Of a DNA stretch of 64,000 nt, positions 6,414 through 64,000 are shown in pieces. The notes below the pieces were generated by a model. That model made no database searches and was not told the origin of the DNA. It worked only from the letters and a program-made list of their open reading frames with translations. Both the position numbers and the translations under genes were made by a program. This stretch comes from Candidatus Daviesbacteria bacterium (lineage in GTDB: Bacteria > Patescibacteriota > Microgenomatia > Daviesbacterales > UBA10151), in contig JACPKM010000001.1 in the NCBI GenBank assembly GCA_016187025.1, forward strand, positions 245,688 to 309,687. The letters are read 5' to 3'. How positions within the stretch are numbered: position 1 is the stretch's first letter; the number at the start of each line of letters is the position of its first letter.

Positions 6414-8281
6414 TAGCTATTTAGCCAGTCATCTGCATCAATCTGACTGATATCAGAATCGATTATATCATCTGAATTCTTAAAATCACTGTAATTGGTG
6501 TTGCTGATTATTAGCTTCTCTGGAATATCAGACAAAAACCTGGAAACCAAGTTATTTGATCTTTGGCCAAAATATAACCTTTGTCTTGTATAGGTTAAAA
6601 AAAGCTTTTCCTTTGCCCTTGTGATGCCAACATAGCAAAGTCTTCTTTCTTCTTCCAGTTCATTCGGATCAAGCATTGAACGGGAATGGGGAAATAACCC
6701 CTCTTCCATTCCTATCATAAATACAATGGGAAACTCCAGTCCCTTTGCACTGTGGAGAGTCATTAAAGTCACAGCATTCACTTCCTCTTTTCCTTTTAAA
6801 GCTTTTTTAGGCAGGTTACCATTTTCAACCAGCGCGGCATTTTCTAAAAATTCAATTAAATTAGGAAACTCTTCCGCAACAGAAAGTAGCTCTTTGACAT
6901 TTTCTACTCTGCCTTTTCCCACCTCTGTTCCATCATCTATATATGCTAAATACCTGGTTTTTGATAAAGCTTTTTCAAGCAGTTCTCTGGTTGTATAAGA
7001 TGTTGGATTTATAGCAATTTCTTGGTAAATTTCTAAAACCTGAGAAAGTCTACCTTTGCCAATTTTTTCAGCGCGTTTTAGGGCAACAGAATCTTGAGGA
7101 TTTTGCAAAAGCCTAAGGTAGGACAGAATGTCCTTAATCTCTTTTCTTTCATAAAATGAAACCCCGCCAAATAACTTATATGGCACACCAGACCTTAAAA
7201 ATTGTTCTTCCAAAGCACGGGATTGTGCATTAGTTCTATAAAGCACTGCGTAATTCGACAACCTTTTTTTGTCTATTTGGGAAAGAATAAATAGCGCTTC
7301 TTCTACCTCATTTCTGGTTTCAACTATCTCAATTTTTTCTCCGCCATCTTTGTCAGTCCACAGTTTTAAAATCGGATGAGTTCTATTTTTGGAAATGATT
7401 GCATGGGCTGCATCCAAAATGTTTTGAGTAGAGCGGTAGTTTTGTTCCAGATAGAAAATTTTTGCGCCGGGATAATCCTTTTCAAAATTAATTATATTTC
7501 GGTAGTCTGCGCTTCTGAATGAGTATATCGACTGGCTGGCATCTCCAACCACACAGATATTTTTGTGACGGTTTGCTAAATACTTGGAAATTAGGTATTG
7601 CGCCGGGTTTGTATCCTGGTATTCATCTATTAAGATATATTGAAATTGTATTTGGTAGCGTGTAAGAATTGTTGGTTCTGCCTGAAACAGGCGGATGGTT
7701 TTTAATAAAAGATCGTCAAAATCTAAAGCCTGGTTTCTTTCTAAAATCTTTTGATATTCCAAATATATTTTGGCTACAGTTTCCTGGAAAAAGCCTCGGG
7801 CATATTGAGGATATTCGGTTGCAGAAATCAGTTCGTTTTTTGCACCAGAAATAGTGCTTCTTACAGCATAAGGTGAGGTTTTTTGAATAGGGATTTTTAA
7901 ATTACCCATGGCTTCTTTGATAGCATCCAGTGCGTCTTTTTCATCATAGATTGCAAAACCCGGGGGAAGCCCCAACACTTGTCCTTCACGGCGAAGTATT
8001 TTGGCACAAAATGAATGAAATGTTCCCATAACAGGTAAAGTGGGTAAATCGCCGATTAATTTTTTAATTCTTTTAATCATCTCGCCGGCTGCTTTATTGG
8101 TAAAAGTTAAGGTTAAGATATTTTCTGGGGAGATCTTTTTTTCAGCAATAAGATATGCAACACGATATGTTAAGACCCTCGTTTTTCCGGATCCTGCCCC
8201 GGCCAAAATTAAACAAGGTCCTTCTGTATTTTTGACAGCTTCCTGTTGTTCGGGATTTAGATCATCAAGAAGAGCAGACAT
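6413..8281 (-). CDS. pcrA: ATP-dependent DNA helicase PcrA/UvrD family (start probably at M13, MSALLDDLNPEQQEAV; ORF track extends to 8317)
   Basis: Walker A LILAGAGSGKTRVLTYR, helicase motifs throughout (DEYQDTN, VGDASQSIYSFR, TLHSAKGLEFP, GITRAKE). Confidence 0.85.
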   Translation of the reverse strand: MSALLDDLNPEQQEAVKNTEGPCLILAGAGSGKTRVLTYRVAYLIAEKKISPENILTLTFTNKAAGEMIKRIKKLIGDLPTLPVMGTFHSFCAKILRREGQVLGLPPGFAIYDEKDALDAIKEAMGNLKIPIQKTSPYAVRSTISGAKNELISATEYPQYARGFFQETVAKIYLEYQKILERNQALDFDDLLLKTIRLFQAEPTILTRYQIQFQYILIDEYQDTNPAQYLISKYLANRHKNICVVGDASQSIYSFRSADYRNIINFEKDYPGAKIFYLEQNYRSTQNILDAAHAIISKNRTHPILKLWTDKDGGEKIEIVETRNEVEEALFILSQIDKKRLSNYAVLYRTNAQSRALEEQFLRSGVPYKLFGGVSFYERKEIKDILSYLRLLQNPQDSVALKRAEKIGKGRLSQVLEIYQEIAINPTSYTTRELLEKALSKTRYLAYIDDGTEVGKGRVENVKELLSVAEEFPNLIEFLENAALVENGNLPKKALKGKEEVNAVTLMTLHSAKGLEFPIVFMIGMEEGLFPHSRSMLDPNELEEERRLCYVGITRAKEKLFLTYTRQRLYFGQRSNNLVSRFLSDIPEKLIISNTNYSDFKNSDDIIDSDISQIDADDWLNS

Positions 8282-8328
8282 GGTGCATATCTTAACACCA
8301 GGACTAGCTTTTGACAAAAGCTAGGACA

Positions 8329-48954: not shown

Positions 48955-51222
48955 GTGAATTTTGATATGAGTTTACTAAGTAACCTCTCTGCCCGGTTAG
49001 GCTTAGGGAAAAAAGAGGAACATCCAGAATACTATTTTGCTATAAACATTGGACCCCAAAGTTTAACAGCAGCTTTATGGGCGATAGAACATAACCAACT
49101 TAAGGTAATTAACACCTCATCTTTCGAGTACTCATCAATGGAGGAAATAATTTCTGTTGTTGATAAACTTCTAGGAGAGTTACTAAGCAATGATTACCCA
49201 GAACCTCAAAAGGTTTTATTTGGAGTTCCAGACTCTTGGTTGCAAGATGAAGATTTACAGGAATCATATATGAAGTTTTTGAGAAGACTGGTAAAAGAGC
49301 TAGAGTTAACTCCAATGGCTTATGTAGCATCATCACATGCCCTTTCCCATTTCCTAGAAAAACAAACTGGTACTCCGACAACAGCAATCTTAGTAGGCTT
49401 GGATGAAAAATACGTTACAGTTACTGTAGTTAGAGCTGGAAAGCTTGATACTAGCAAAGTGTCACAAAGAGGCAACAATTTAGGAGAAGATATTGAAAAG
49501 CTGTTACTGAGCTTTACTGCAATAGAAGTTTTACCTTCAAAAATAATCCTTTATGGAAATGATCATCTAGGTTTAGATAAGCATAAAAATCAACTACTTG
49601 AGTATTCTTGGATGTCGAAATTGTCTTTCTTGCACGTTCCTAAAATCGAGTCTCTAGGTGAAAATGTTGAGATAGATTCAGTGGCGTTTGCTGGAGCAGT
49701 TGAACTCAATCCGGCAGTAGAGTTTAAAAAATTACATGCAAAAGAAGATAAAGATTTTAAACCAATGAGCGAAGAAGAAATAATTGAGCAAGTTGAAGAA
49801 GTAGAAGAAGAAAAAAAAGGTGAAGTTAGCAAGGAGTTAAAAGATATAGAAGAGGATAGCAAGTATGAAGCGGCAGAAAAAGAAGTAAATATCAATAAAG
49901 TTTCAGCAGAAGAATTAGGGTTTGTCACAGGCGATATAAGAGAGACTAATTTAGTTGTACCTGAGGCTGAAGATTTTGAAAAAGATATGATTACTACCCC
50001 TCCTGCCTATGATATTTCTACCAAAAAAGCTGCAGGTTTGGGAAAAAAGCTCAAATTTATACAGTTTTTAAGCATTAAAGACTATATAAAAGGAAGAGGA
50101 ATCTATCTTTCTATAGTTATTTCGGTTTTTCTTTTATTGCTGGGTGGGTACCTATTTTTATTAAAGTCTGATGTCAAAGTTTTTGTCGAACCACAAATAC
50201 TAGAAAAAGATGCTCAAATAGTTGCAGATCCGGCTATTAAAGAAGTAAATGAAGCAGACAATAAAATTCCAGGACAATCAGTCGATATTAGGATAAATGG
50301 TACTGGTAAAGGAGCTGCTACTGGAACTAAACAGGTTGGAGATCCTGCTAAGGGAACTGTTGTTGTTTACAACAAAACTTTTGAGCCTAAAAGTTTTAGC
50401 AAGGGAACTACCTTAACAGCAGCAAATGGGTTTAAATACACACTTGATGTCAATGTAAATATTGCTTCTCAATCTGCAAGCGATAGTGGAATTTCCTTTG
50501 GTAAAGCGAATGCCGAAGTAACAGCAGCAAATATTGGGGCAGATGGTAATCTGCCTTCTGGAAGCGATTTAAACTTTACTAATTTTTCTTCTTCACAGGT
50601 TGGGGTTAAAGCAGAAGGTAATTTTTCAGGGGGAACAAGTAAAGAGGTTACAGTTGTTTCGGATGCTGACCAAAAGAAATTACTGGCCCAGGTTGCATCA
50701 GACTTAAAAGGGCAAGCCAAAGCAAAGTTACAAGAAAAATATCCCGATAAGAAGATTTTAGAGGAAGCATTGCAAGAAGAGATAGTTAAAAAAACATTTA
50801 GTAAAAATATCAATGATCAAGCAAGTGAGCTGTCTTTGGATTTAACAGTCAACTTTAAAGGAACAGCTTTTGAAGATAAGGATTTAAAGCAGCTGGTGTC
50901 AAAGCTTGTTTCAGTTAATGTTCCAGAAGGCTTTGAGCTAAACTTAGCAGAAACCGAAACCTTAGCTGATGTATCAAAATTAGAAAAAGATGGAAGACTG
51001 GTATTTTTGGCAAGGTTTAAGGCAAAGCTTATTCCCAAGGTAGATATTTCAGAAATTAAAAAACTAATAAGAGGTAAGACTCCTTTGCAGGTGGAAGAGA
51101 TTCTAAAAAGAAATGAACATATCTTAGGAACAGAGATAAAGCTTATCCCCTCCTTGCCGTCAGTACTTCAGAGACTGCCAATATTTGATAAAAACATTAG
51201 GGTAGAGGTAGGCCTTAAATGA
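48955..51222 (+). CDS. large bitopic membrane protein: about 375-aa cytoplasmic N-terminal region (possibly actin-like FtsA/PilM-like fold), one TM, about 355-aa extracellular C-terminal region
   Basis: TM IYLSIVISVFLLLLGGYLFLL near residue 380; N-terminus YYFAINIGPQSLTAALWAIEHNQLKVINTS resembles the first strand-loop of actin-like ATPases (weak); acidic linker. Confidence 0.5.
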   Translation: MNFDMSLLSNLSARLGLGKKEEHPEYYFAINIGPQSLTAALWAIEHNQLKVINTSSFEYSSMEEIISVVDKLLGELLSNDYPEPQKVLFGVPDSWLQDEDLQESYMKFLRRLVKELELTPMAYVASSHALSHFLEKQTGTPTTAILVGLDEKYVTVTVVRAGKLDTSKVSQRGNNLGEDIEKLLLSFTAIEVLPSKIILYGNDHLGLDKHKNQLLEYSWMSKLSFLHVPKIESLGENVEIDSVAFAGAVELNPAVEFKKLHAKEDKDFKPMSEEEIIEQVEEVEEEKKGEVSKELKDIEEDSKYEAAEKEVNINKVSAEELGFVTGDIRETNLVVPEAEDFEKDMITTPPAYDISTKKAAGLGKKLKFIQFLSIKDYIKGRGIYLSIVISVFLLLLGGYLFLLKSDVKVFVEPQILEKDAQIVADPAIKEVNEADNKIPGQSVDIRINGTGKGAATGTKQVGDPAKGTVVVYNKTFEPKSFSKGTTLTAANGFKYTLDVNVNIASQSASDSGISFGKANAEVTAANIGADGNLPSGSDLNFTNFSSSQVGVKAEGNFSGGTSKEVTVVSDADQKKLLAQVASDLKGQAKAKLQEKYPDKKILEEALQEEIVKKTFSKNINDQASELSLDLTVNFKGTAFEDKDLKQLVSKLVSVNVPEGFELNLAETETLADVSKLEKDGRLVFLARFKAKLIPKVDISEIKKLIRGKTPLQVEEILKRNEHILGTEIKLIPSLPSVLQRLPIFDKNIRVEVGLK

Positions 51223-51869
51223 TTGCTTATGGCAAATCCCTTTCCTTAGTCCTTTTATTTCTGGGGGTTTTTGCAATAAGCCAGGTAGTATTTCCTTGGG
51301 TAAGTTTTAAGTTATGGGAGTTTAGAGGACAATATGAGGGCAATACTTATTTAACTAGTCCTCAGTTAACGAAAAACCAGGAAATACTTGGAGTCTCAAT
51401 TAAAAACAAAGCTAATTTTTCACAAATTGTATCATCTGCTACCAGAGTTAAACCGGCTTCTTATACACGCTTTAGCTTGATAATTCCCAGCATAAAATTA
51501 GATAATGAGACAGTTTATGTGGATACAAACGATCTTTCCCATGGTTTAGTGCATTTACCAGGATCTGCTCTTCCGGGTGAAAAAGGAAATGTATTTGTCT
51601 CTGGTCACTCTGCCCTACCTTCATATATTGGTCCTAAGGCAAAAGCGTTATTTGCAAACCTGCCGAAAGTTAAAAAAGGAGAAAAAATAATCATAGAAAC
51701 AGAAGGGGTAATATATAACTATCTGGTTGATTCTATAAAAGTTATTGACCCAAAGGACCTATCCGTTATTACCCCTCCTGACACTCAGGGTAGATTTATT
51801 ACTTTAATGACTTGCGTACCTCCTGGATTTAATACAAAACGCTTGATAGTTGTTGGTAAAATGATCTGA
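51219..51869 (+). CDS. sortase-family transpeptidase
   Basis: N-terminal TM, catalytic His region (VFVSGHSA) and TLMTCVP (TLxTC) cysteine motif; overlaps upstream gene by 4 nt. Confidence 0.6.
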   Translation: MIAYGKSLSLVLLFLGVFAISQVVFPWVSFKLWEFRGQYEGNTYLTSPQLTKNQEILGVSIKNKANFSQIVSSATRVKPASYTRFSLIIPSIKLDNETVYVDTNDLSHGLVHLPGSALPGEKGNVFVSGHSALPSYIGPKAKALFANLPKVKKGEKIIIETEGVIYNYLVDSIKVIDPKDLSVITPPDTQGRFITLMTCVPPGFNTKRLIVVGKMI

Positions 51870-53657: not shown

Positions 53658-56600
53658 ATGTCAATAGCAGCGGATAATATAGCAATCGCACCAAGAAAAT
53701 ATTGGACCAAAACTACGGCACCTACGCCGGATATTAATCTAATAAAACTACAGCTTGATTCTTATTCATGGTTTTTACATCAAGGAATTATTGAAGTCCT
53801 TAACGAGATTACCCCTGTTGAGGACTTTACAGGAAAAAATTGGACCCTAGAGTTAGGGTCCATTTCTTTTGGAAAGCCTAACTACACTCCTGAACAAGCT
53901 TTAAACAAAGGTGTTACATTTGATGCTCCATTAAAAGTTGAGACAATTTTAACTAATAAGCAAACTGGCAAAAAATACCAACAAGAGGTATTTATGGGTG
54001 ACATTCCTCAAATGACAGAAAAGGGAACATTTATCATAAATGGAGTAGAAAGAGTGATTATCAATCAGCTGGTTAGATCTCCTGGAGTATTTTTCTCGGC
54101 AACAGACGATCCTATTACTGGAAGGAGATTGCATTCTGCAGAGATTAGGCCTTATCGGGGTTCCTGGTTGGAGTTTTCTGTTTCCCGAACAAGTGTTTTA
54201 ACAGCCAAGATCGATAGAAGGAGAAAATTTGCTGCTACAACGCTACTAAGAGCACTGGGTTTTTCATCAGACGAGGAGATAATAGCAGTTTTCAAAGATG
54301 TAGATACTGCTGAAACTAAGTTAATAGAAACAACACTGGCAAAGGATCCTACCAAAACTACAGATGAAGCCTTGGTTGAAATTTTCAGAAAGATGCGTCC
54401 AGGAGATCCAGTAGTTTTAGACAATGCCAAAACTATGCTAGACGGAATGTTTTTCAATGAAAGACGCTATAATCTTACCCGAGTCGGTAGATATAAAATC
54501 AACAAAAGATTAGAGCTTGATATCCCCAATACCCCAGAAAGCCTTATTTTGACAAAAGAAGATATTATTACCACCTTAAAATATCTAATTAAGTTGACAA
54601 ACGGCGAAGGAAAAGTTGATGATATTGATCATCTAGCAAACAGGCGTGTCAGATGTGCTGGAGAACTGGTTCAGCAAAACGCCTTTAGAATTGGTGTTTT
54701 ACGCTTAGAAAGAATCATCAAAGAGAGAATGAGTTTGGCTGCAGTAGATCAAGAGGTGACCCCAGGCGGGTTAATTAATGCCAAACCTGTTATTGCAGCA
54801 GTTAACGAATTTTTCAGATCCTCTCAGTTATCAAGCATTCTAGATCAGGTTAATCCGCTATCAGAAGTGGATCATTTAAGAAGGTTATCAGTCATGGGAG
54901 CAGGGGGAATAACAAGAGATAGAGCCAGCTTTTCGGTTCGTGATATTAACCACTCTCAATATGGAAGAATTGATCCTATTAGATCTCCGGAAGGACAAAA
55001 CATCGGACTTGTGACATATTTGGCACTTTATGCCCGTATTAATGAATACGGCTTCTTGGAAACTCCTTATAGGAAAGTAGTTTTAGAAAAAGGTAAGTCC
55101 CGTGTTACAAACGATATTATTTATTTGTCTGCTGATGATGAGGAAAGATTTCATATTACTGAGGCAGCAGTTGAAGTTGATGAAAAAGGGGTTATTGTTT
55201 CTGATCGCGTGCCGATGAGGTACATGGGTAACTTTTTTGAAGGAGATGCAAAAGATATTGAGTTAATAGATATTTCTCCTCAGCAGATTTTTGGTATTTC
55301 TGCCTCAATTATTCCATTTCTTGCAAACGATGATGCAAATCGCGCTTTGATGGGTACTCAAATGCAGTGTCAAGCGGTACCACTTTTAATCCCCCAAGCT
55401 CCAATTGTTGGAACTGGGATGGAAAGAGTGGTTGCTGATAATATGGGTAGAGTGGTAAGAGCTCCAGAGGATGGAATTGTAAGTAGCGTTGACGGGAAAA
55501 AATTAACCCTTAAGACCAAAAAAGATGAATATAAATATGAGATTAAAAAGTTTGTTCACTCTCCCCAAGGAACCTGTTACTCACAAAGACCAGTGGTGGC
55601 AGTGGGGCAAAAAATCAAAAAAGGAGATTTGCTAATTGATGGTGCTGCTACCCAAAACGGAGAATTGGCTTTAGGACAAAATTTAACTATCGCTTACATG
55701 AGTTATGAAGGGTTAGGTTATGAGGATGCTATCGTTATTTCTGATAGATTACTCAGAGAAGACCTTCTTACCTCAATACATATTGAGGAGTATGAGGTAG
55801 ATGTAGTAGAAACAAAACTAGGTCCGGAAGAGCTGACCCGGGATATTCCAAATGTTTCTGAAGAATCTTTGGCCAATCTTGATGATCAGGGTATTATCAG
55901 AATTGGTGCAGAGGTTGGTCCAAATGACATTTTAGTTGGTAAAGTTCAACCTAAAGGTGAAACAGAACTAACAGCAGAGGAAAGACTACTAAGAGCTATA
56001 TTTGGAGAAAAAGCAAAAGAAGTAAGAGATACATCATTGCGGGTGCCTCATGGAGAGAGGGGTACAGTAATTGGAATCCAAGTACTTTCTCGCGATGAAG
56101 GTGACGAGTTGGATACTGGAACTTTAATGAGAATTAAAGTCAAGGTAGCTCAGCTTCGAAAAGTGACTGAAGGTGACAAACTGGCTGGAAGGCATGGAAA
56201 CAAGGGTGTTATCTCAAGAATAGTTCCTATTGCTGATATGCCTCATATGGAAGATGGAACACCAGTTGATATTATCATTTCTCCTTTGTCTGTGTTATCG
56301 CGTATGAATCTAGGGCAGTTACTGGAAACTCATTGGGGATTTGTTGGATTCAAACAAGGCTATAAAATTGCTGCTCCAGTTTTCCAAAAGATATCAGAAG
56401 AGGCTTTAATGGATGAGCTTAAAAAAGCAGGGCTTCCTACAGATGGAAAGATTCAATTAATTGATGGTAGAACTGGAGAAAAATTTGATAACACCGTGGT
56501 GGTTGGCAAAAACTATATCTTAAAACTTATCCATATGGTCGAGGAAAAGATTCATGCCCGATCAACTGGACCTTACTCACTGGTAACCCAACAGCCATTG

Positions 56601-57023
56601 GGTGGAAAAGCTCAGATGGGTGGTCAAAGATTGGGAGAGATGGAAGTTTGGGCTCTTGAGGCATATGGTGCAGCCCATATCCTGCAAGAGATGTTGACTA
56701 TTAAATCAGATGATGTGGTAGGAAGAGCTAAGGCTTTTGAGGCCATAGTTAAGGGTATTGATATTCCTCAAGCTTTAATACCTGAATCATTTAAGGTTTT
56801 GGTAAAAGAACTACAAGCATTAGGCTTGAATGTTGAGACTCTGGGGGCTAAAATTGTCCAAGCTCAAGTTGCAGAAGAAGAAACTCAAGCAGCAGAACAG
56901 GTAGCTCAGATGGAAAATATAATGCAAATGACTACATCAGCATCTGAGGGAGAAATTGAAGCTGAAGAAAGTCCATTTGAGTTAGTAGATGCAGGAGGAG
57001 CAGAAGAAAAGGAGGGAAGCTAA
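53658..57023 (+). CDS. rpoB: DNA-directed RNA polymerase beta subunit
   Basis: Full-length collinear match to RpoB conserved regions. Confidence 0.95.
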   Translation: MSIAADNIAIAPRKYWTKTTAPTPDINLIKLQLDSYSWFLHQGIIEVLNEITPVEDFTGKNWTLELGSISFGKPNYTPEQALNKGVTFDAPLKVETILTNKQTGKKYQQEVFMGDIPQMTEKGTFIINGVERVIINQLVRSPGVFFSATDDPITGRRLHSAEIRPYRGSWLEFSVSRTSVLTAKIDRRRKFAATTLLRALGFSSDEEIIAVFKDVDTAETKLIETTLAKDPTKTTDEALVEIFRKMRPGDPVVLDNAKTMLDGMFFNERRYNLTRVGRYKINKRLELDIPNTPESLILTKEDIITTLKYLIKLTNGEGKVDDIDHLANRRVRCAGELVQQNAFRIGVLRLERIIKERMSLAAVDQEVTPGGLINAKPVIAAVNEFFRSSQLSSILDQVNPLSEVDHLRRLSVMGAGGITRDRASFSVRDINHSQYGRIDPIRSPEGQNIGLVTYLALYARINEYGFLETPYRKVVLEKGKSRVTNDIIYLSADDEERFHITEAAVEVDEKGVIVSDRVPMRYMGNFFEGDAKDIELIDISPQQIFGISASIIPFLANDDANRALMGTQMQCQAVPLLIPQAPIVGTGMERVVADNMGRVVRAPEDGIVSSVDGKKLTLKTKKDEYKYEIKKFVHSPQGTCYSQRPVVAVGQKIKKGDLLIDGAATQNGELALGQNLTIAYMSYEGLGYEDAIVISDRLLREDLLTSIHIEEYEVDVVETKLGPEELTRDIPNVSEESLANLDDQGIIRIGAEVGPNDILVGKVQPKGETELTAEERLLRAIFGEKAKEVRDTSLRVPHGERGTVIGIQVLSRDEGDELDTGTLMRIKVKVAQLRKVTEGDKLAGRHGNKGVISRIVPIADMPHMEDGTPVDIIISPLSVLSRMNLGQLLETHWGFVGFKQGYKIAAPVFQKISEEALMDELKKAGLPTDGKIQLIDGRTGEKFDNTVVVGKNYILKLIHMVEEKIHARSTGPYSLVTQQPLGGKAQMGGQRLGEMEVWALEAYGAAHILQEMLTIKSDDVVGRAKAFEAIVKGIDIPQALIPESFKVLVKELQALGLNVETLGAKIVQAQVAEEETQAAEQVAQMENIMQMTTSASEGEIEAEESPFELVDAGGAEEKEGS

Positions 57024-57028
57024 AAAAC

Positions 57029-60000
57029 GTGAACGATTTACTGGATTTTGAATCATTAAGAATAACGATTGCCAGTCCTGAACAAATCAGGTCGTGGTCA
57101 TTTGGTGAGGTGACCAAACCAGAGACTATAAATTACAGGACTTTAAAAGCGGAAAAAGACGGTCTTTTTTCTGAAAATATCTTTGGTCCAACCAAAGATT
57201 ATGAATGTTATTGTGGAAAGTATAAAAGAATCAGATATCGCGGAGTAATTTGTGATAAGTGTGGAGTTGAGGTTACTCAATCAAAGGTTAGAAGAGAAAG
57301 AATGGGTCATATTACTTTGGCATCTCCTGTTGCGCATAGCTGGTTTGTTAAAGGTGCTCCTTCCAAGTTATCCCTTGTTTTGGATATTTCTCCAAAGAAT
57401 TTGGAAAGCGTTGTTTATTTTGCTTCCTACTTGGTAACCAATATTGACCCAACTAAAAAGAATGCAAGCTTGGAAAGAGTAGACCAGGACCTACAAAAGA
57501 AATTAGAGGAGCAAAAGGCTCAGCTAGAAAAAGATATCAGGCTAAAAGAAGCAGAGTTTGAAACTCAGATTAAAGAGTTGAGAAAGAGTAAAGAGGGTGA
57601 GAAAGTAGAGTTACAAATTCAGGAAATAGAGCTAAAGAAAAGACAAGAGATCCAAAAGATGAGAGATAACAATGTGGTAGAGCAAGGGCAGTTAGAGAAT
57701 ATTTATAAAGCAGTTGGGGATTTAACAAAAAGTGTTACTTCACACAAACTTTTATCAGAAGATGAGTTTTATAAATTAGAAGAATATGGTGTATCTGATT
57801 TTATGGAGGTTGGAATGGGGGCTGAGGCCATTTTAGAAGTGCTAAAAAAGATGGATCTTGATAAGCTTTCCGCCTCCTTACGGGAGGAAGTCAGAAAAAC
57901 AACTGGTCAAAAACATGTCAAAGCCACAAAAAGACTGCGAATTATTGAAGGCATGAGATCAGCTGGAATGGCACCAGAAAATATGGTAGTCCGAATATTA
58001 CCTGTTCTTCCCCCAGACCTTCGTCCAATGGTTCAGCTGCCTGGAGGAAGGTTTGCAACATCTGATTTAAATGACTTATACAGAAGGGTAATCAACAGAA
58101 ACAACAGGCTAAACAGGCTTATTAATTTAGGCGCCCCGGAAATTATTTTAAGAAATGAAAAAAGAATGCTTCAGGAGGCAGTTGATGCATTGATTGATAC
58201 CACTCAAAGATCAGCCAGGCGCGGTGCAGGCACTCATACTTTAAGATCATTATCGGATATGTTAAGAGGAAAACAAGGCCGCTTTAGGCAAAATCTACTG
58301 GGTAAAAGAGTGGACTATTCAGGTAGATCAGTTATTGTGGTGGGTCCAAAGCTAAGACTTGATCAGGTTGGTTTACCAAAAGAGATGGCTTTGGAAATGT
58401 TTAAGCCATTTGTTTTGCGCGATATGATCGCAAGAGGTTTGGCATCAAACGTAAAGGGGGCAAAAAATGTTTTAGAAACACGTCCGTCAGAAGTTTGGGA
58501 TATCTTAGAAGAAATTATTAATGGGCATCCAATACTGATAAACCGCGCCCCTACTCTTCACAGGCTTGGTATCCAAGCCTTCTTCCCAGTATTAGTAGAT
58601 GGCAATGCTATTAAGATTCACCCTTGTATCTGTGCTGGGTTTAATGCTGATTTTGATGGAGATCAGATGGCAATCCATGTGCCTTTATCAGAAAAAGCAC
58701 AACAAGAAGCAAGAGATTTAATGACTGCCAAGGAAAACATTTTTGGTCCTGCTAACGCCCAACCTATTACAGTTCCAAACAGAGAAATGGCACTTGGTTG
58801 TTATTACCTAACTACCTTAAAAGATTTAAGCAGTGAAAAAGAAGTTAAGATATTTACCGATGAAACAGAGGCAATTTTAGCATACCAAAAGGAAGTAATT
58901 GGTTTGCAGGAAAAAATTAAAGTAAGAATATTCTCTGAGATTTTGGAAACTTCAGTTGGGAGAATTTTATTCAATCAGATCTTACCTGAAGGGATGAGGT
59001 TTTTGAATGCACCAGTTAAGGGTGGAACTATAAGAGATATTATTTTGAAAGCAACAGAAACATTTAGTAGAGAAGAGGTGGTAGAGTTAATAGATAGTAT
59101 CAAGTCGCTGGGTTTTTGGTCTGCAACACGGGCTGGAATTTCAATTGGTTTGTTTGATGCAAAGGTTGTTCCAGATAAACAGGAATACTTAGACAAAGCT
59201 GAAAAAGAGATAGAGGAAATCGAAAAAAATGTTGCAAAGGGACTTATAACTCCTCAGGAAAAATCCCAATTATCGCAAATGGTTTGGATTAGAGCAACTG
59301 AGGATTTAGCAAATGCTACCTGGGATTATATGGGTCAAAGTAATCCCATTAGAATGATGGTTGAAGCAGGTGCCCGGGGGTCAAGAGATCAAGCAAAGCA
59401 GCTATCCGCTATGAGAGGACTTTCCACAGATCCTACAGGAAAAATCGTTGAGCTCCCTACAAAGTCAAATTACAGGCAAGGTTTATCTGTGTTTGAATAC
59501 TTTACCTCGGCCAGAGGTGCAAGAAAAGGTGTTGCTGATAAAGCTCTAAAAACTGCAGATGCTGGGTATTTGACCAGAAGACTTGTTGATGTGGCGCACG
59601 ATATGATTATTAGAACTGAAGATTGCGGAACCAAACAAGGATTAGAAATTATTATTGGGGGCAATCTTTCCTCTGCCAGGGAAAAACTTTTGGGCAGAAA
59701 AATTTTAGAAAAGGCAGTTGATCCAAAAACTAAAAAAGAACTTTTCAAAGCTGGTGAAATAGTGATTGAAGATCAGATTGAACAGCTGGTTAAAGCAGGG
59801 GTTGATAAGCTTATGGTTAGGTCTCCGCTTACTTGTGAGAATAAGTTTGGAATCTGTGCCAATTGTTATGGATATGATTTGACTACCAGGAGACTGGTGC
59901 AAATTGGTACTCCTGTGGGTGTGGTTGCTGCTCAAGCTATTGGTGAACCTGGTACACAGCTAACAATGAGAACTTTCCATACTGGAGGTATTGTCGGGGT

Positions 60001-60712
60001 TGATATTACCCAAGGTTTGCCCCGTGTAGAAGAACTTTTTGAAGCCAGAACTCCTAAGATTATTGCTCCAATGTCTGAAATTGCAGGTAAGGTATCGGTG
60101 ATTGAAGGAGACATGGGGGTTAAGGTGGTAATAAGAACAACTCAAAAGCCACATGAGGAAAGAGAGTATCTAATACCAGCCACCTCTGAGCTTTTGGTCG
60201 AGGATGGGCAACTAATTCCTGCAGGAACTATTCTTGCCTCAGGTCACTTGGATGTAAAGGATGTATTAAGGGTTAAAGGCTTGACTGAGGCTCAAAAATA
60301 TATTGTAAATGAAGTTAGAAAAGTTTATGAATCTCAGGGTGTACCAATTAACGAAAAGCACTTTGAGGTAATTGTGCGAAAAATGTCTGATAAGGTAAGA
60401 ATTGAATCTCAAGGTGATACAAATCTTCTTCCTGGAGAAGTTGTGGATAAGATTAAATTCGAAGATGAGAATATGAGAGTTTTGGCAAGCGGTGGAGAGC
60501 CATCAACAGCAGAAGTGGTTATTTTGGGTATTACCAGAGCAAGCCTCCAAACAGAGAGCTTTTTGTCAGCTGCTTCCTTCCAGGAAACAACTACAGTATT
60601 ATCTGATGCAGCTATCCAGGGAAAGACGGATAGGTTGTTAGGCCTTAAGGAAAATGTTATAATTGGCCGACTTATACCGACTAGTCCTGATAGGGCTAAA
60701 ATGGAGAGTTAA
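57029..60712 (+). CDS. rpoC: DNA-directed RNA polymerase beta' subunit
   Basis: Zn-finger CGKYKRIRYRGVICDKCGVEV, NADFDGDQM catalytic loop, bridge helix/trigger loop; GTG start. Confidence 0.95.
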   Translation: MNDLLDFESLRITIASPEQIRSWSFGEVTKPETINYRTLKAEKDGLFSENIFGPTKDYECYCGKYKRIRYRGVICDKCGVEVTQSKVRRERMGHITLASPVAHSWFVKGAPSKLSLVLDISPKNLESVVYFASYLVTNIDPTKKNASLERVDQDLQKKLEEQKAQLEKDIRLKEAEFETQIKELRKSKEGEKVELQIQEIELKKRQEIQKMRDNNVVEQGQLENIYKAVGDLTKSVTSHKLLSEDEFYKLEEYGVSDFMEVGMGAEAILEVLKKMDLDKLSASLREEVRKTTGQKHVKATKRLRIIEGMRSAGMAPENMVVRILPVLPPDLRPMVQLPGGRFATSDLNDLYRRVINRNNRLNRLINLGAPEIILRNEKRMLQEAVDALIDTTQRSARRGAGTHTLRSLSDMLRGKQGRFRQNLLGKRVDYSGRSVIVVGPKLRLDQVGLPKEMALEMFKPFVLRDMIARGLASNVKGAKNVLETRPSEVWDILEEIINGHPILINRAPTLHRLGIQAFFPVLVDGNAIKIHPCICAGFNADFDGDQMAIHVPLSEKAQQEARDLMTAKENIFGPANAQPITVPNREMALGCYYLTTLKDLSSEKEVKIFTDETEAILAYQKEVIGLQEKIKVRIFSEILETSVGRILFNQILPEGMRFLNAPVKGGTIRDIILKATETFSREEVVELIDSIKSLGFWSATRAGISIGLFDAKVVPDKQEYLDKAEKEIEEIEKNVAKGLITPQEKSQLSQMVWIRATEDLANATWDYMGQSNPIRMMVEAGARGSRDQAKQLSAMRGLSTDPTGKIVELPTKSNYRQGLSVFEYFTSARGARKGVADKALKTADAGYLTRRLVDVAHDMIIRTEDCGTKQGLEIIIGGNLSSAREKLLGRKILEKAVDPKTKKELFKAGEIVIEDQIEQLVKAGVDKLMVRSPLTCENKFGICANCYGYDLTTRRLVQIGTPVGVVAAQAIGEPGTQLTMRTFHTGGIVGVDITQGLPRVEELFEARTPKIIAPMSEIAGKVSVIEGDMGVKVVIRTTQKPHEEREYLIPATSELLVEDGQLIPAGTILASGHLDVKDVLRVKGLTEAQKYIVNEVRKVYESQGVPINEKHFEVIVRKMSDKVRIESQGDTNLLPGEVVDKIKFEDENMRVLASGGEPSTAEVVILGITRASLQTESFLSAASFQETTTVLSDAAIQGKTDRLLGLKENVIIGRLIPTSPDRAKMES

Positions 60713-60718
60713 AAAACA

Positions 60719-61165
60719 ATGCCTACAATCAATCAATTAGTTAGAAAGCCAAGAAAAAAAGTAGCAAAAAAAGTTAAAGCAACAGTTTTGCGGCGTAACT
60801 TTAACGCTAAAGATAGAAAATACTCAACAACTTTTAACCCACAAAAGCGAGGAGTGGTAACTTTAGTCAAAACCATGACTCCTAAAAAACCAAATTCAGC
60901 ACTACGAAAGGTGGCAAGAGTGAGATTATCTAATAGAACAGAGGTCACAGCCTATATCCAAGGTGAAGGTCATAACTTAGCAGAGCATGGAATCGTGATG
61001 GTTAGAGGTGGAAGAGTGAGAGACTTACCAGGTGTGAAATATCATTTAATTAGAGGAAAATATGACCTAGAAGGCGTGCAAAAGAGAAATCAAAGCAGGT
61101 CCATTTACGGAACCAAAAAAGGAGGAGGAGGAGCTGTTAAAAAGTCAGCACCAGCACCTAGTTAA
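60719..61165 (+). CDS. rpsL: 30S ribosomal protein S12 (with internal insertion and Gly/Lys-rich C-terminal extension)
   Basis: [10 protein letters not shown]...[16 protein letters not shown]...[29 protein letters not shown]; 148 aa versus the usual ~124. Confidence 0.9.
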
Positions 61166-61168
61166 AAT

Positions 61169-61645
61169 ATGCGTGGTAAAAGAGTGGAAAAGAAAATATT
61201 ACAGCCAGATCCAATTTTTGGGTCAAGGCTGCTACACCGGTTTATCAATAAAATTATGTATGATGGCAAAAAATCAATTGCCCAAAACTTGGTTTATAAA
61301 GCTTTAGAGGAAATAAAAGAACAAACCAAACAAGATCCACTTAGTGTTTTCGAAAGAGCCATTCAAAATATCTCTCCTAGAATGGAGGTCCGTCCAAGAA
61401 GAGTGGGAGGGGCTTCCTACCAGGTGCCTGTTGAGGTAAGAGGAGATAGGAAAGAGGCCTTGGCTATCAGATGGTTGGTGACCTCAGCCAGAGCCAGGTT
61501 AAATTCTCAATACCACAGCTTTTCTCAAAAACTGGCTGCAGAGATTATGGATGCTGCAAATAATGCTGGTGGTGCGGTGAAGAAAAAAGAAGACGTTCAA
61601 AAAGTTGCATCTGCCAATAGGGCGTTTTCCCACTTTCGTTGGTAA
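61169..61645 (+). CDS. rpsG: 30S ribosomal protein S7
   Basis: PDPIFGS...MYDGKKSIAQNLVY...NAGGAVKKKEDVQKVA consensus. Confidence 0.9.
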   Translation: MRGKRVEKKILQPDPIFGSRLLHRFINKIMYDGKKSIAQNLVYKALEEIKEQTKQDPLSVFERAIQNISPRMEVRPRRVGGASYQVPVEVRGDRKEALAIRWLVTSARARLNSQYHSFSQKLAAEIMDAANNAGGAVKKKEDVQKVASANRAFSHFRW

Positions 61646-61737
61646 CGAAATGTGGTTTGCCGCCCTGCGATAGTTCCCCCGCTACGAGGGGTAGTTCTAT
61701 CTAATGGGCCTTTGCCCACTTCCGCTAGTAAATTTCC

Positions 61738-61746
61738 TGATATAAT
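61738..61746 (+). promoter_or_regulatory. extended -10 promoter element (TGaTATAAT) upstream of tsaC
   Basis: TG at 61738-61739, TATAAT at 61741-61746; no good -35. Confidence 0.3.
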
Positions 61747-61808
61747 CTTTTTGTGATTAAAGTAGTTTTGTTTGACATTGATGGGGTAGTGTAAGTCAAT
61801 GAAAGGCT

Positions 61809-62411
61809 ATGATCTATAAGCTCTCAGATTTGACTAAAGAAAAAATTGAGATAATTGGAAATTACCTAAAAGAAGGAAAAATAGGGGTAATTCCTACAGA
61901 TACTATATATGGAATTGTGGGAGCTGCATTTTTACAAGAAACTGTAGAAAGAATTTATGAGTTAAGAAAAAGGTCAAAAGATAAGCCAATGATTATTCTA
62001 ATATCATCTCTGGATGATTTAAAAAAGTTTGAAATTGTCCTCACTAAAAAGCAGAAAGAGTTTTTAGCAAAAAACTGGCCAAATCCTTTGAGTGTGGTTT
62101 TAGAATGTAAAAATGAAAAATATAAATATCTGCACAGAGGTAAAGATAGCCTGGCTTTTAGAGTGCCAAAAGATAAATTTTTACAACAAATTTTAAATAT
62201 CAGTGGTTCACTAGTTGCCCCAAGTGCAAATTTTGAAGGAGAAAAGCCTTCTGAAACCATCGCTGATGCTAAAAACTACTTTGGACAAAACGTCGGTTTA
62301 TATATTGATAAAGGTAAAATTACCTCTTCCTCATCCACATTAGTAATGGTTTTAGAAGATGGAGCTGTAAAAATATTGAGAGAAGGGGCGTTTAAAGGGT
62401 TTGCGAGTTGA
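61809..62411 (+). CDS. tsaC: L-threonylcarbamoyladenylate synthase (TsaC/YrdC/Sua5 family, single-domain)
   Basis: IGVIPTDTIYGIVGAAF N-terminal YrdC signature; 200 aa. Confidence 0.75.
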   Translation: MIYKLSDLTKEKIEIIGNYLKEGKIGVIPTDTIYGIVGAAFLQETVERIYELRKRSKDKPMIILISSLDDLKKFEIVLTKKQKEFLAKNWPNPLSVVLECKNEKYKYLHRGKDSLAFRVPKDKFLQQILNISGSLVAPSANFEGEKPSETIADAKNYFGQNVGLYIDKGKITSSSSTLVMVLEDGAVKILREGAFKGFAS

Positions 62412-62445
62412 CTTTTAGCCAAATTGATCTTATTATTTACAATTA

Positions 62446-62471
62446 GCCTCCGGATTCGAGGAGGTTTTTTT
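62446..62471 (+). terminator. intrinsic terminator after tsaC (GCCTCC-GGATTCGA-GGAGG + TTTTTTT); 3' stem doubles as SD-like GGAGG for the next ORF
   Basis: GC stem plus T7 run. Confidence 0.55.
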
Positions 62472-62476
62472 AATCT

Positions 62477-62710
62477 ATGATGATTACTACGGTAAAGGAA
62501 GAAAAGTTAAAAATGTGGAGAGCCAATTTAAAACAGCTTGAAGAAGAGCTGAATCAAATAATGACCAAAAAAGGAGAAGCTGCAAGAGAAGGAGATTTGA
62601 GAGAAAACGCTGCATATCAAATGGCAGTTGAAGATGCTGAGACGTGGAGAGTAAGGATTGAGGAAATTAAAAAGATTATTGAGAATCTAGAAAAGGAGAA
62701 ACAAAAATAA
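62477..62710 (+). CDS. GreA/GreB N-terminal coiled-coil domain-only protein (77 aa)
   Basis: [36 protein letters not shown] parallels E. coli GreA [31 protein letters not shown]; no C-terminal FKBP-like domain. Confidence 0.55.
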
Positions 62711-64000
62711 TGGCTGCTATCACTAAAACAACCAATCGTAATTTTCCTCTAGACCGGATCCGCAACATGGGAATCATCGCTCATATTGATGCAGGGAAAA
62801 CTACCACCACAGAACGCATTCTTTTTTATACGGGGAGAACTTACAAAATTGGTGATATTGACGAAGGAAATACGGTTACAGATTGGATGGAGCAAGAAAG
62901 AGAAAGGGGTATTACTATTGTCTCTGCTGCCATCACCACCTTTTGGACTCCAAAGGAAGGTCCATACAAGGATCAAGAAACCAGGATTAACTTAATTGAT
63001 ACTCCAGGACATGTTGATTTTACAGCTGAGGTTGAAAGGTCTTTGCGTGTTTTGGATGGAGGAGTAATAGTTTTAGATTCATCCTCAGGTGTTCAATCGC
63101 AAACTGAAACTGTGTGGAGACAAGCAAATAAGTATAAAGTTCCTTTGGTAGCATTTGCAAATAAAATGGATGTTTTGGGAGCAGACTTTTTTGGAACAAT
63201 TCAATCTGCAAGAGACAGACTAGGAGCAAATGCAATTGCCCTAAATATTCCAATCGGGAAAGAAAATGACTTTAAGGGAGTCGTGGATTTACTTGGCCAA
63301 AAAGCGCTGATTTGGGAAGATGATGGGACTGGTGCAAAGTTTAATACTGTTGATATTCCGCAAGATTTGGTTGAAGAGGCCAAAACTCACCGCGAGAAAT
63401 TAGTTGAAGAAATTGCAGGAACCGATGATGCTTTAATGGAGAAATACCTAAATAGCGAAGATATCTCAGTAGAGGAGTTGAAAAAAGCACTCCGCCAAGC
63501 AGTGATTGATAATAAAATAGTTCCAGTACTGGCAGGTTCATCTTTAAGAAATAAAGGAGTGCAACCAATGCTTGATGCGGTTGTAGAATACCTTCCATCA
63601 CCTCAAGATATTGGTTCTGTTTTTGGACAAGATACAGACGATTTAGAACAGCAATTAGAAAGAAAAGCTGACCCATCTGCTCCGCTGTCTGCGCTGGCTT
63701 TTAAAGTCCAAGTAGATCCACACGTAGGAAAGCTGACCTATCTTAGAATTTATTCCGGAACTCTAAAAGGTGGAACGTATATTTATAATCCCACCAAAAG
63801 AACAAAAGAAAGAGTTGGAAGACTTCTATTAATGCATGCAAATGATAGAGAAGAGATTGATGAGGCCTATGCAGGAGAAATAGTAGCAGCAGTTGGACTC
63901 AAAGATACAATTACCGGAGATACCCTTTGTGATGAGGATTCCCCAATTGTACTGGAAAATATTTCCTTTCCTGATCCAGTGATATCTTTGGCAATCGAAC
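62710..64000 (+). CDS. fusA: elongation factor G, 3'-partial (runs off the window end; absent from the ORF track for lack of a stop)
   Basis: [42 protein letters not shown]..., [12 protein letters not shown]; frame open to nt 64000. Confidence 0.9.

Follow-up and report, generated by a model that had tools for sequence, protein, structure and literature searches.

We describe here a 64-kb stretch of DNA from Candidatus Daviesbacteria (the window, by which we mean this stretch at its full length), in which the EF-G gene, fusA, is directly preceded by an open reading frame (ORF) of 77 amino acids (aa). The product of this ORF, which we call mini-Gre, corresponds to the N-terminal antiparallel coiled coil of the transcript-cleavage factor GreA and has no globular C-terminal domain. 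We observed that this short form, of 72-91 residues in Daviesbacteria and its relatives, is conserved as a family of its own and that it accompanies fusA in every locus compared. Judged from its sequence, mini-Gre probably acts as a stand-alone factor in the secondary channel of RNA polymerase (RNAP) and is produced from the first gene of the fusA operon. The loci of relatives are labelled L001 etc. and the family proteins P0198 etc.; coordinates of the features are collected in Table 1.

Domain content and predicted structure of mini-Gre

An earlier reading of the window, made from the letters only (hereafter the sequence-only reading), had described the 77-aa ORF as the N-terminal coiled coil of GreA without its C-terminal domain, and this description was borne out. 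In the Pfam scan, the protein matched PF03449 (GreA_GreB_N) with 37.5 bits (E 2.8e-9, profile positions 5-69 of 71), above the gathering threshold of 24.5, and no match to the Gre C-terminal domain, PF01272, was obtained. The same was observed for the aligned family members, where PF03449 was matched by 21/21 and PF01272 by 0/21. Against the full-length NCBIfam models, mini-Gre covered the first half of each only and scored 39.5 bits for TIGR01462 greA (cut-off 139) and 16.5 bits for TIGR01461 greB (cut-off 171). When the six frames of the window were searched by phmmer with E. coli GreA, the mini-Gre ORF was the sole match, and it aligned to GreA residues 26-72 only. As the N-domain and the acidic tip are present, while the C-domain is missing and the scores against the full-length models fall short, mini-Gre is not a GreA or GreB in the curated sense. 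By its sequence, it is a Gre-derived protein that stands outside the curated GreA/GreB membership.

The tip of the hairpin reads G39-D40-L41-R42-E43-N44 and sits in a conserved G-D-L-x-E-N-A-x-Y motif. D40 and E43 are the counterparts of the catalytic D41 and E44 of E. coli GreA, and both acidic tip residues of GreA and GreB are kept in mini-Gre. The family profile aligned without gaps to the N-domain of Thermus GreA (PDB 4wqt_X; positions 14-68 to 16-70) and aligned also to E. coli GreA (1grj). In the MAFFT alignment, helix 1 showed a gap of 8 residues against E. coli GreA, which was discarded as an alignment artefact, the hidden Markov model alignments to Pfam and to Thermus GreA being essentially ungapped.

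AlphaFold2, run on an alignment of 21 sequences, predicted a two-helix hairpin (helices 2-36 and 45-76) with a mean predicted local distance difference test score (pLDDT) of 88.6. In the Foldseek search of the PDB, the best match was E. coli GreA 1grj, with a root-mean-square deviation of 1.2 Å over 61 columns at 31% identity; GreB (1.7 Å) and a GreA-RpoB model were also near the top. The Foldseek E-values were weak, which is expected of a generic helical hairpin, and numerous unrelated hairpins scored similarly. The C4 zinc-finger region and the DxxDxA tip that characterise the DksA/TraR family (zf-dskA_traR) were not observed: mini-Gre has no cysteine, and no DksA/TraR family appeared among its Pfam matches at E <= 1. 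A search of PHROGs for phage relatives returned a marginal match only (E 0.009). The ORF is identical to the NCBI protein MBI2600672.1 (HYW42_01850) of a Candidatus Daviesbacteria bacterium, annotated as 'hypothetical protein', which places the organism in the Candidate Phyla Radiation (Microgenomates).

Conservation of the short form

The sequence-only reading had offered two origins for the ORF, a minimal Gre- or Gfh-like modulator or the surviving half of a decayed greA. A word-indexed search of 5.8 billion proteins yielded 64 relatives of 63-121 aa, each with PF03449 only. The tip G-D-L-(R/S)-E-N was kept in all 64, and G39, D40, L41, E43, N44 and A45 were invariant, so that the strictest conservation falls on the Gre catalytic tip. 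We also measured the distance from the tip to the C-terminus, which was 35-54 residues in the 64 homologues; as the C-terminal domain has about 80 residues, none of them can contain it. The family has residues of its own that are not found in canonical GreA, namely W14 (63/64) and an aromatic residue at position 57 (56/64; W57 in the window), and K10 and M13 are conserved as well.

In a HMMER scan of 1.84 billion 50%-identity representatives, the top 26 matches were short proteins (48-126 aa), and the first full-length GreA appeared at 48.5 bits, compared with 117 bits for the best match. Mini-Gre is a separate clade without full-length members among these representatives. In 13 orthologue pairs, the proportion of synonymous differences (pS) was saturated at 0.69-0.97, while that of non-synonymous differences (pN) was 0.19-0.39; the corresponding rate ratio, dN/dS, was 0.08-0.29 where it could be calculated. 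Mini-Gre evolves under purifying selection. These observations speak against a recent truncation of greA, and of the two origins it is the minimal modulator that the evidence favours. As part of the best explanation of the sequence data, we consider it fairly probable that mini-Gre arose from GreA long ago, with loss of the globular C-terminal domain, and has become fixed in the lineage.

A second type with a G-D-W-H-E-N tip was found among distant representatives (P0204, P0206, P0207, P0209 and P0210). In locus L088, two overlapping tandem mini-Gre genes (418-660 and 635-868) precede fusA (start 991). One is of the core type and the other of a divergent second type with a GGDWHENAEYEDAERQ tip, and the two are 39% identical; together they might correspond, without anchor domains, to a GreA/GreB or GreA/Gfh1 pair. 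In the literature, we found no paper on stand-alone Gre N-domain (PF03449-only) proteins or on Gre factors in the candidate phyla radiation (CPR)/Patescibacteria/Microgenomates.

Mini-Gre and fusA form the conserved unit of the locus

We compared 16 distinct loci, that is the window and 15 others. Three of the latter were obtained by exact-protein look-up, 10 came from species-representative genomes, including the complete Daviesbacteria chromosome CP066688.1 (820,589 bp; represented by L011), and two were reached via distant family members. Mini-Gre was immediately 5′ of fusA in 16/16 loci. A full-length greA at the rpsG-fusA position, which the sequence-only reading had envisaged for relatives in the case of a recent truncation, was seen in 0/16. 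At the mini-Gre/fusA junction, start and stop codons overlapped in 5 loci, a gap of 2-4 nucleotides (nt) was present in 6 and a gap of 73-122 nt in 4; L012, which has a run of N, was left out of these counts. Upstream, rpoC-rpsL-rpsG was found wherever the 5′ flank was present.

The interval between rpsG and mini-Gre was of a different nature. In the window (61646-62407) it contains tsaC, and in L001 (3555-5950) tsaC plus an opposite-strand Trans_reg_C protein. A HAD hydrolase, a dCTP deaminase and RluA are encoded in L004 (3294-5870), an M48 peptidase, a pyrophosphatase and a PhD/ParE toxin-antitoxin pair in L005 (3008-5910), and DUF559/MTES_1575, a histidine phosphatase and a shikimate kinase in L089 (175-2860). 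Further, different genes occupy the interval in L007 and L009, and L011, L013 and L015 have a short spacer only. The rpsG-to-mini-Gre interval is a variable cargo site, and the conserved unit is mini-Gre plus fusA. The tsaC gene does lie between rpsG and fusA, as the sequence-only reading had it, but it is not part of the feature: of the 16 loci, the window and L001 (64% identity) alone have it here, and we regard it for this reason as incidental, lineage-specific cargo.

A universal partner gene upstream of mini-Gre was also considered and rejected. The candidate, an unannotated protein of 216-228 aa whose gene adjoins the mini-Gre promoter directly upstream, is common to L005 and L089 only (36% identity).

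A different Patescibacteria lineage has a full-length, two-domain greA (155-158 aa) as the leading gene of the string greA-rplU-rplQ-rplM-rpsL (Table 1), and rpsL is there apart from both rpsG and fusA. Linkage of Gre genes with genes for translation is found in more than one lineage of the CPR.

Promoter and leader hairpin of the mini-Gre/fusA unit

From the promoter scan, we observed that the sigma-70-type promoter upstream of mini-Gre has 10/12 matches, and in the window its -35 element overlaps the stop codon of tsaC. The sequence TTGACTTTT was found only once in the 64 kb, at this promoter. TTGACT (usually TTGACTTTT), a spacer of 16-18 nt and TAnnAT were present upstream of mini-Gre in 16/16 loci.

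The promoter is followed by a leader hairpin with the shape of an intrinsic terminator (-11.2 kcal/mol, z = -2.2). As the hairpin begins 8 nt past the -10 element, a transcript from this promoter would start at its foot. A GC-rich hairpin and then a T-run, 6-28 nt after TAnnAT, were seen in 16/16 loci, of which 5 were judged by eye (stems mismatched or bulged, or a different hairpin taken by the finder). The stems vary in sequence yet stay paired: CCTCC/GGAGG, TCTCCCG/TGGGAGA, TTCCCAA/TTGGGAT, GACCCC/GGGGT and AAACTCCCA/TGGGAGTTT. The geometry of an intrinsic terminator or promoter-proximal attenuator was thus found in the window and across the 16 loci, with co-varying stems.

The hairpin and T-run had been noted before as a strong terminator after tsaC. 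They are there, but they are not simply those of tsaC: lying downstream of the conserved promoter and being kept in 16 loci whatever is upstream, the hairpin belongs to the mini-Gre/fusA unit. It might halt read-through from rpoBC-rpsLG or from the cargo genes. It might also serve as a promoter-proximal attenuator or as a 5′ stabiliser of the operon's own transcripts, and these roles are compatible with each other.

The Shine-Dalgarno-like GGAGG of mini-Gre is at the same time the 3′ arm of the leader hairpin, and owing to this double use the hairpin could mask the mini-Gre ribosome-binding site. In L014 (about 933-1040) and L015 (about 8229-8317), we observed a second module of promoter, hairpin and T-run between mini-Gre and fusA, composed of TTGACTTGAGGCT, TAAGAT, a hairpin and TTTTT. 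The leader module may originally have been that of fusA; in most lineages, the mini-Gre gene is situated between the two.

In the E. coli greA leader (GraL), about two-thirds of the transcripts are terminated, and GreA autoregulates through this leader (PMC2836576, PMC6829880). The mini-Gre leader resembles GraL in having a strong promoter and then a close intrinsic terminator upstream of a Gre-factor gene. It differs in that it has neither sequence similarity to GraL nor an Rfam match and would also control fusA.

Proposed mode of action

PMC3132773 (citing Koulich 1997/1998) and PMC4598747 assign the nucleolytic and anti-arrest activity to the Gre N-domain and the binding of the β′ coiled coil to the C-domain. 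Likewise, they describe the coiled coil of secondary-channel factors as reaching the active site and the globular C-domain as binding the β′ rim helices (PMC4598747; PMC3132773, citing Koulich 1997/1998 and Loizos & Darst 1999).

By homology, the mini-Gre hairpin would enter the RNAP secondary channel and place D40 and E43 at the active site, in the manner of D41 and E44 of E. coli GreA. It would then stimulate the cleavage of backtracked or misincorporated transcripts, or at least compete with the trigger loop. A function at the RNAP active site is the most economical one, given a hairpin of full length, an invariant tip and strong selection. The absent anchor could plausibly be offset by dosage: mini-Gre is the first cistron of the fusA(-tuf-S10) operon, which has a near-consensus conserved promoter, frequently shows translational coupling and should be among the most highly expressed. 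K10, M13, W14 and W57 may offset it as well, as they are expected at the open end of the hairpin and, on Gre geometry, near the channel rim. Koulich et al. reportedly found in 1998 that the isolated GreA N-domain has weak residual type-specific cleavage activity. The sequence of mini-Gre would accommodate both stimulation of cleavage and mere occupation of the channel.

Several points weigh against this reading. In all bacterial secondary-channel factors known so far, the C-terminal domain is regarded as the module that binds RNAP (PMC4598747), and the affinity of a free coiled coil may for that reason be too low for it to act. A conserved acidic tip is no proof of cleavage activity, as the acidic residues are also present in Gfh1 and Rv3788, which inhibit RNAP and do not cleave (PMC4598747, PMC3132773). 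A few distant representatives (P0198, P0200, P0203, P0205 and P0208) have degenerate tips. The search for a canonical GreA covered about 64-80 kb of a roughly 0.8-Mb genome, and the attenuator role suggested for the leader derives from geometry only.

Search for a canonical GreA

With E. coli GreA or its C-domain as query, neither phmmer nor tblastn detected a full-length greA or a Gre C-domain in the window or in L001-L015, which is weak evidence, since it concerns one neighbourhood. The E. coli C-domain query did find C-domains at 30-45% identity in other phyla, including Patescibacteria. We also searched with the Patescibacteria GreA from L020 and with P0211, the closest full-length GreA. 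Neither query gave a match labelled Daviesbacteria or a match on the long mini-Gre-carrying contigs, most matches in both searches being without an organism name. The group around P0211 falls within a different CPR lineage (38% identity in YceG), and its genes lie elsewhere than at rpsG-fusA.

We hold it as a tentative possibility, short of probable, that Daviesbacteria are without any canonical GreA and that the 77-aa coiled coil is their sole transcript-cleavage factor. In that case, the domain that anchors to RNAP would be dispensable for the working of a bacterial Gre factor, which would rely on stoichiometric co-production with EF-G, on new rim contacts by the conserved Trp residues, or on both. 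Some lineages would then have duplicated mini-Gre into two anchor-less paralogues, comparable to a GreA/GreB pair made of hairpins only.

Alternative explanations

Mini-Gre could instead be a competitor of the Gfh1 or Rnk kind beside a canonical GreA, occupying the channel without stimulating cleavage and having its level tied to translation-factor expression. Non-cleaving paralogues with an acidic tip are well documented in Gfh1 and Rv3788 (PMC4598747, PMC3132773), and the tandem divergent paralogues of L088 suggest functional specialisation. However, the potency of the known competitors rests on tight binding by the C-domain, which mini-Gre does not have, and its GDLxENAAY tip and flanks are as conserved as those of true cleavage factors. 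The window and the 16-kb loci of relatives showed no full-length GreA, a weak test that also goes against this proposal, and altogether we think it unlikely. Our doubt is greater for a function apart from RNAP, whether as a partner of EF-G or the ribosome, as a regulator of fusA expression or as a chaperone-like protein. Such a function would agree with the invariant linkage to fusA, the frequent translational coupling, the use of helical hairpins as generic interaction modules and the weak Foldseek E-values; it can hardly explain why the strictest conservation is on the Gre catalytic tip, which is difficult to understand outside the RNAP active site. Moreover, a place beside translation genes need not mean a role in translation, as a full-length greA heads a ribosomal-protein operon in the other Patescibacteria lineage.

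CPR genomes often shorten or split proteins, which counts for the idea that the C-terminal domain is encoded by a separate gene elsewhere and that the two halves reassemble non-covalently on RNAP. The Gre domains are modular, and the GreA/B C-domain is reused alone in other architectures (PMC8195603). We nevertheless give this idea little credence, as no C-domain-like ORF was seen near the gene in the 16 loci or in the 64-kb window with a query that had some power. At least 64 homologues with conserved length and motif, a pN far below pS, the conserved promoter, the coupling to fusA and a clade without any full-length relative leave a decaying greA pseudogene or a spurious ORF barely credible, even though the ORF is short, is a 'hypothetical protein' at NCBI and scores below all NCBIfam GreA cut-offs.

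Comparison with known systems

Compared with GreA and GreB (1GRJ, 2P4V, Thermus GreA), mini-Gre has a homologous coiled coil of the same length and an identical GDLxENAxY tip with both acidic residues. Its R60 and I61 match R61 and I62 of E. coli GreA, and the predicted fold superposes on 1GRJ at 1.2 Å. Unlike these factors, it is without the roughly 80-residue FKBP-like C-terminal domain that binds the β′ rim helices, has its own conserved K10, M13, W14 and W57, and has its gene within the str/fusA operon. Among the Gre-family paralogues, Gfh1 (Thermus/Deinococcus) and Rv3788 (M. tuberculosis) have retained the acidic tip and sit in the secondary channel, which illustrates that stimulation of cleavage is not a necessary property of a Gre-like coiled coil. 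However, both consist of two domains and need the C-domain for their tight binding to RNAP and for their pH switch, and mini-Gre, having no such domain, does not classify as a Gfh1-type factor.

The closest conceptual analogue is TraR, with the TraR-like proteins of phages and plasmids; these minimal forms of DksA are pared-down secondary-channel factors of roughly 73 residues that function although part of the parent's architecture is missing (PMC4598747). TraR differs in being DksA-derived and in having kept the globular Zn-finger part while losing half of the coiled coil, that is, the opposite half to mini-Gre. In HelD, a Gre-like coiled coil is inserted in the secondary channel and is anchored by other domains (PMC7749165, PMC7749160), and in GreA/B-C-only conflict systems the C-domain is reused alone (PMC8195603). 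As HelD and the conflict systems use them apart, the two Gre domains are separable modules. In both of these cases the Gre module is fused to binding or effector domains, whereas in mini-Gre the coiled coil stands alone.

To our knowledge, the characterised bacterial secondary-channel factors (GreA, GreB, Gfh1, DksA, TraR and Rnk) have all been described as combining a coiled coil with a globular domain that binds RNAP. A protein that is a coiled coil only, yet is naturally selected and widely conserved, would define the minimal functional unit of a Gre factor, and it would raise the question of how affinity and specificity for RNAP are achieved without an anchor. Through the fixed place of mini-Gre at the head of the EF-G operon, a transcription-fidelity factor is linked with the expression of translation factors in very small genomes, and the finding would gain in interest if the lineage lacks canonical GreA. 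As the mini-Gre genes are labelled 'hypothetical protein', surveys for greA that use full-length models will score Gre factors as absent in these lineages. The protein is small enough for direct synthesis and for testing on E. coli or cognate RNAP.

Layout of the locus and neighbouring genes

The window has a G+C content of 37.5%. On its + strand, the genes are ordered rpoB, rpoC, rpsL, rpsG, a spacer, tsaC, the hairpin with its T-run, the 77-aa ORF and fusA. From rpsL to fusA, every element that the sequence-only reading had listed was found at its place by sequence, Pfam and NCBIfam analyses; the spacer, given there as 160 nt, measures 163 nt. The products of rpoB and rpoC are the RNAP subunits that form the secondary channel. 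In L001-L015, the orthologues of this upstream rpoB/rpoC context were 67-90% identical (tblastn). The ATG of fusA shares one base with the TAA of mini-Gre (TAATG). In relatives, the fusA orthologue has GTP_EFTU/EFG_III/EFG_IV/EFG_C domains and is followed by tuf and then rpsJ.

Table 1. Features of the mini-Gre/fusA locus; positions refer to the window unless a locus label is given
Feature	Position	Strand	Remarks
rpoB	53658-57023	+	identity from size (1121 aa) and position
rpoC	57029-60712	+	from ORF list; orthologue in relatives matches Pfam RNA_pol_Rpb1_1-5
rpsL	60719-61165	+	Pfam Ribosom_S12_S23, 9.8e-33
rpsG	61169-61645	+	Pfam Ribosomal_S7, 5.8e-60
rpsG-tsaC spacer	61646-61808	+	163 nt
Degenerate second copy of rpsG 3′ end, AATGGGCCTTTGCCCACTTCCGCTAGTAA	61703-61731	+	two mutations from intact NRAFAHFRW-stop
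Extended -10, TGATATAAT	61738-61746	+	62 nt upstream of tsaC
tsaC	61809-62411	+	200 aa; single-domain L-threonylcarbamoyladenylate synthase
Sigma-70-type promoter	62408-62436	+	-35 TTGACT(TTT) 62408-62413, 17-nt spacer, -10 TATTAT 62431-62436
Leader hairpin and T-run	62445-62471	+	stem AGCCTCC/GGAGGTT, 7 bp, 8-nt loop (62445-62466); seven T 62465-62471
mini-Gre (77-aa ORF)	62477-62710	+	Gre N-terminal antiparallel coiled coil only
fusA (EF-G), 5′ part	62710-64000	+	ATG 62710-62712; extends past window end
greA-rplU-rplQ-rplM-rpsL	L020 5191-7424
greA-rplU-rplQ-rplM-rpsL	L090 7001-9046
greA-rplU-rplQ-rplM-rpsL	L091 7001-9236

TsaC matched Pfam PF01300 (Sua5_yciO_yrdC, 1.8e-42) over residues 19-193 of 200, and a second domain is absent. 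With 150.4 bits against NCBIfam TIGR00057 (cut-off 123.2), the protein belongs to the TsaC/YrdC synthases, without the Sua5 C-terminal domain. The extended -10 element TGATATAAT in the spacer is probably the tsaC promoter. It is present as the sequence-only reading had noted, but its occurrence is within chance by count, with 7 matches in the window against 3.8 +/- 2.1 expected. A structured RNA in the spacer was considered and rejected, as the Rfam search was empty at gathering and relaxed thresholds and the fold was no better than that of shuffles (z = +0.34).

The spacer also contains the degenerate repeat of the rpsG 3′ end listed in Table 1. In L007, L009, L011, L013 and L015, the last ~10 rpsG codons recur as a non-coding copy, intact or partial, 30-100 nt past the true stop, and in L007, L011 (7784-7816) and L015 this copy is an intact reading frame. 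In several lineages, the second and the resident rpsG ends differ almost exclusively by synonymous changes, by manual count about 17 against 1 non-synonymous change. From its sequence, the second copy looks like the displaced 3′ end of another rpsG allele, left by recombination, replacement or integration beside the cargo hotspot.

A perfect extended -10 element, TGTTATAAT, is located at 60655-60663 within the 3′ end of rpoC, 56 nt upstream of the start of rpsL, with a TTGTTA -35 element 17 nt upstream, which suggests an internal promoter for rpsL-rpsG. The rpsL product, S12, has 148 aa in the window and 143-154 aa in relatives. It carries an additional basic segment near the N-terminus (the Pfam match covers residues 38-129 only) and a Gly/Ala/Pro-rich C-terminal tail. 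Shine-Dalgarno-like purine-rich motifs precede the starts of mini-Gre (GGAGG; region 62460-62479), fusA (AAGGAG; 62692-62712) and rpsL (GGAGAG; 60703-60721) by 11-13 nt, an unusually long spacing.

Further upstream, in the region 48955-51869, a 755-aa protein has a Pfam match limited to a marginal Baseplate_J-like hit (E 1e-4). Its gene overlaps the sortase gene (51219-51869) directly downstream, which is followed by an unannotated 131-aa ORF, YceG/MltG and rpoB.

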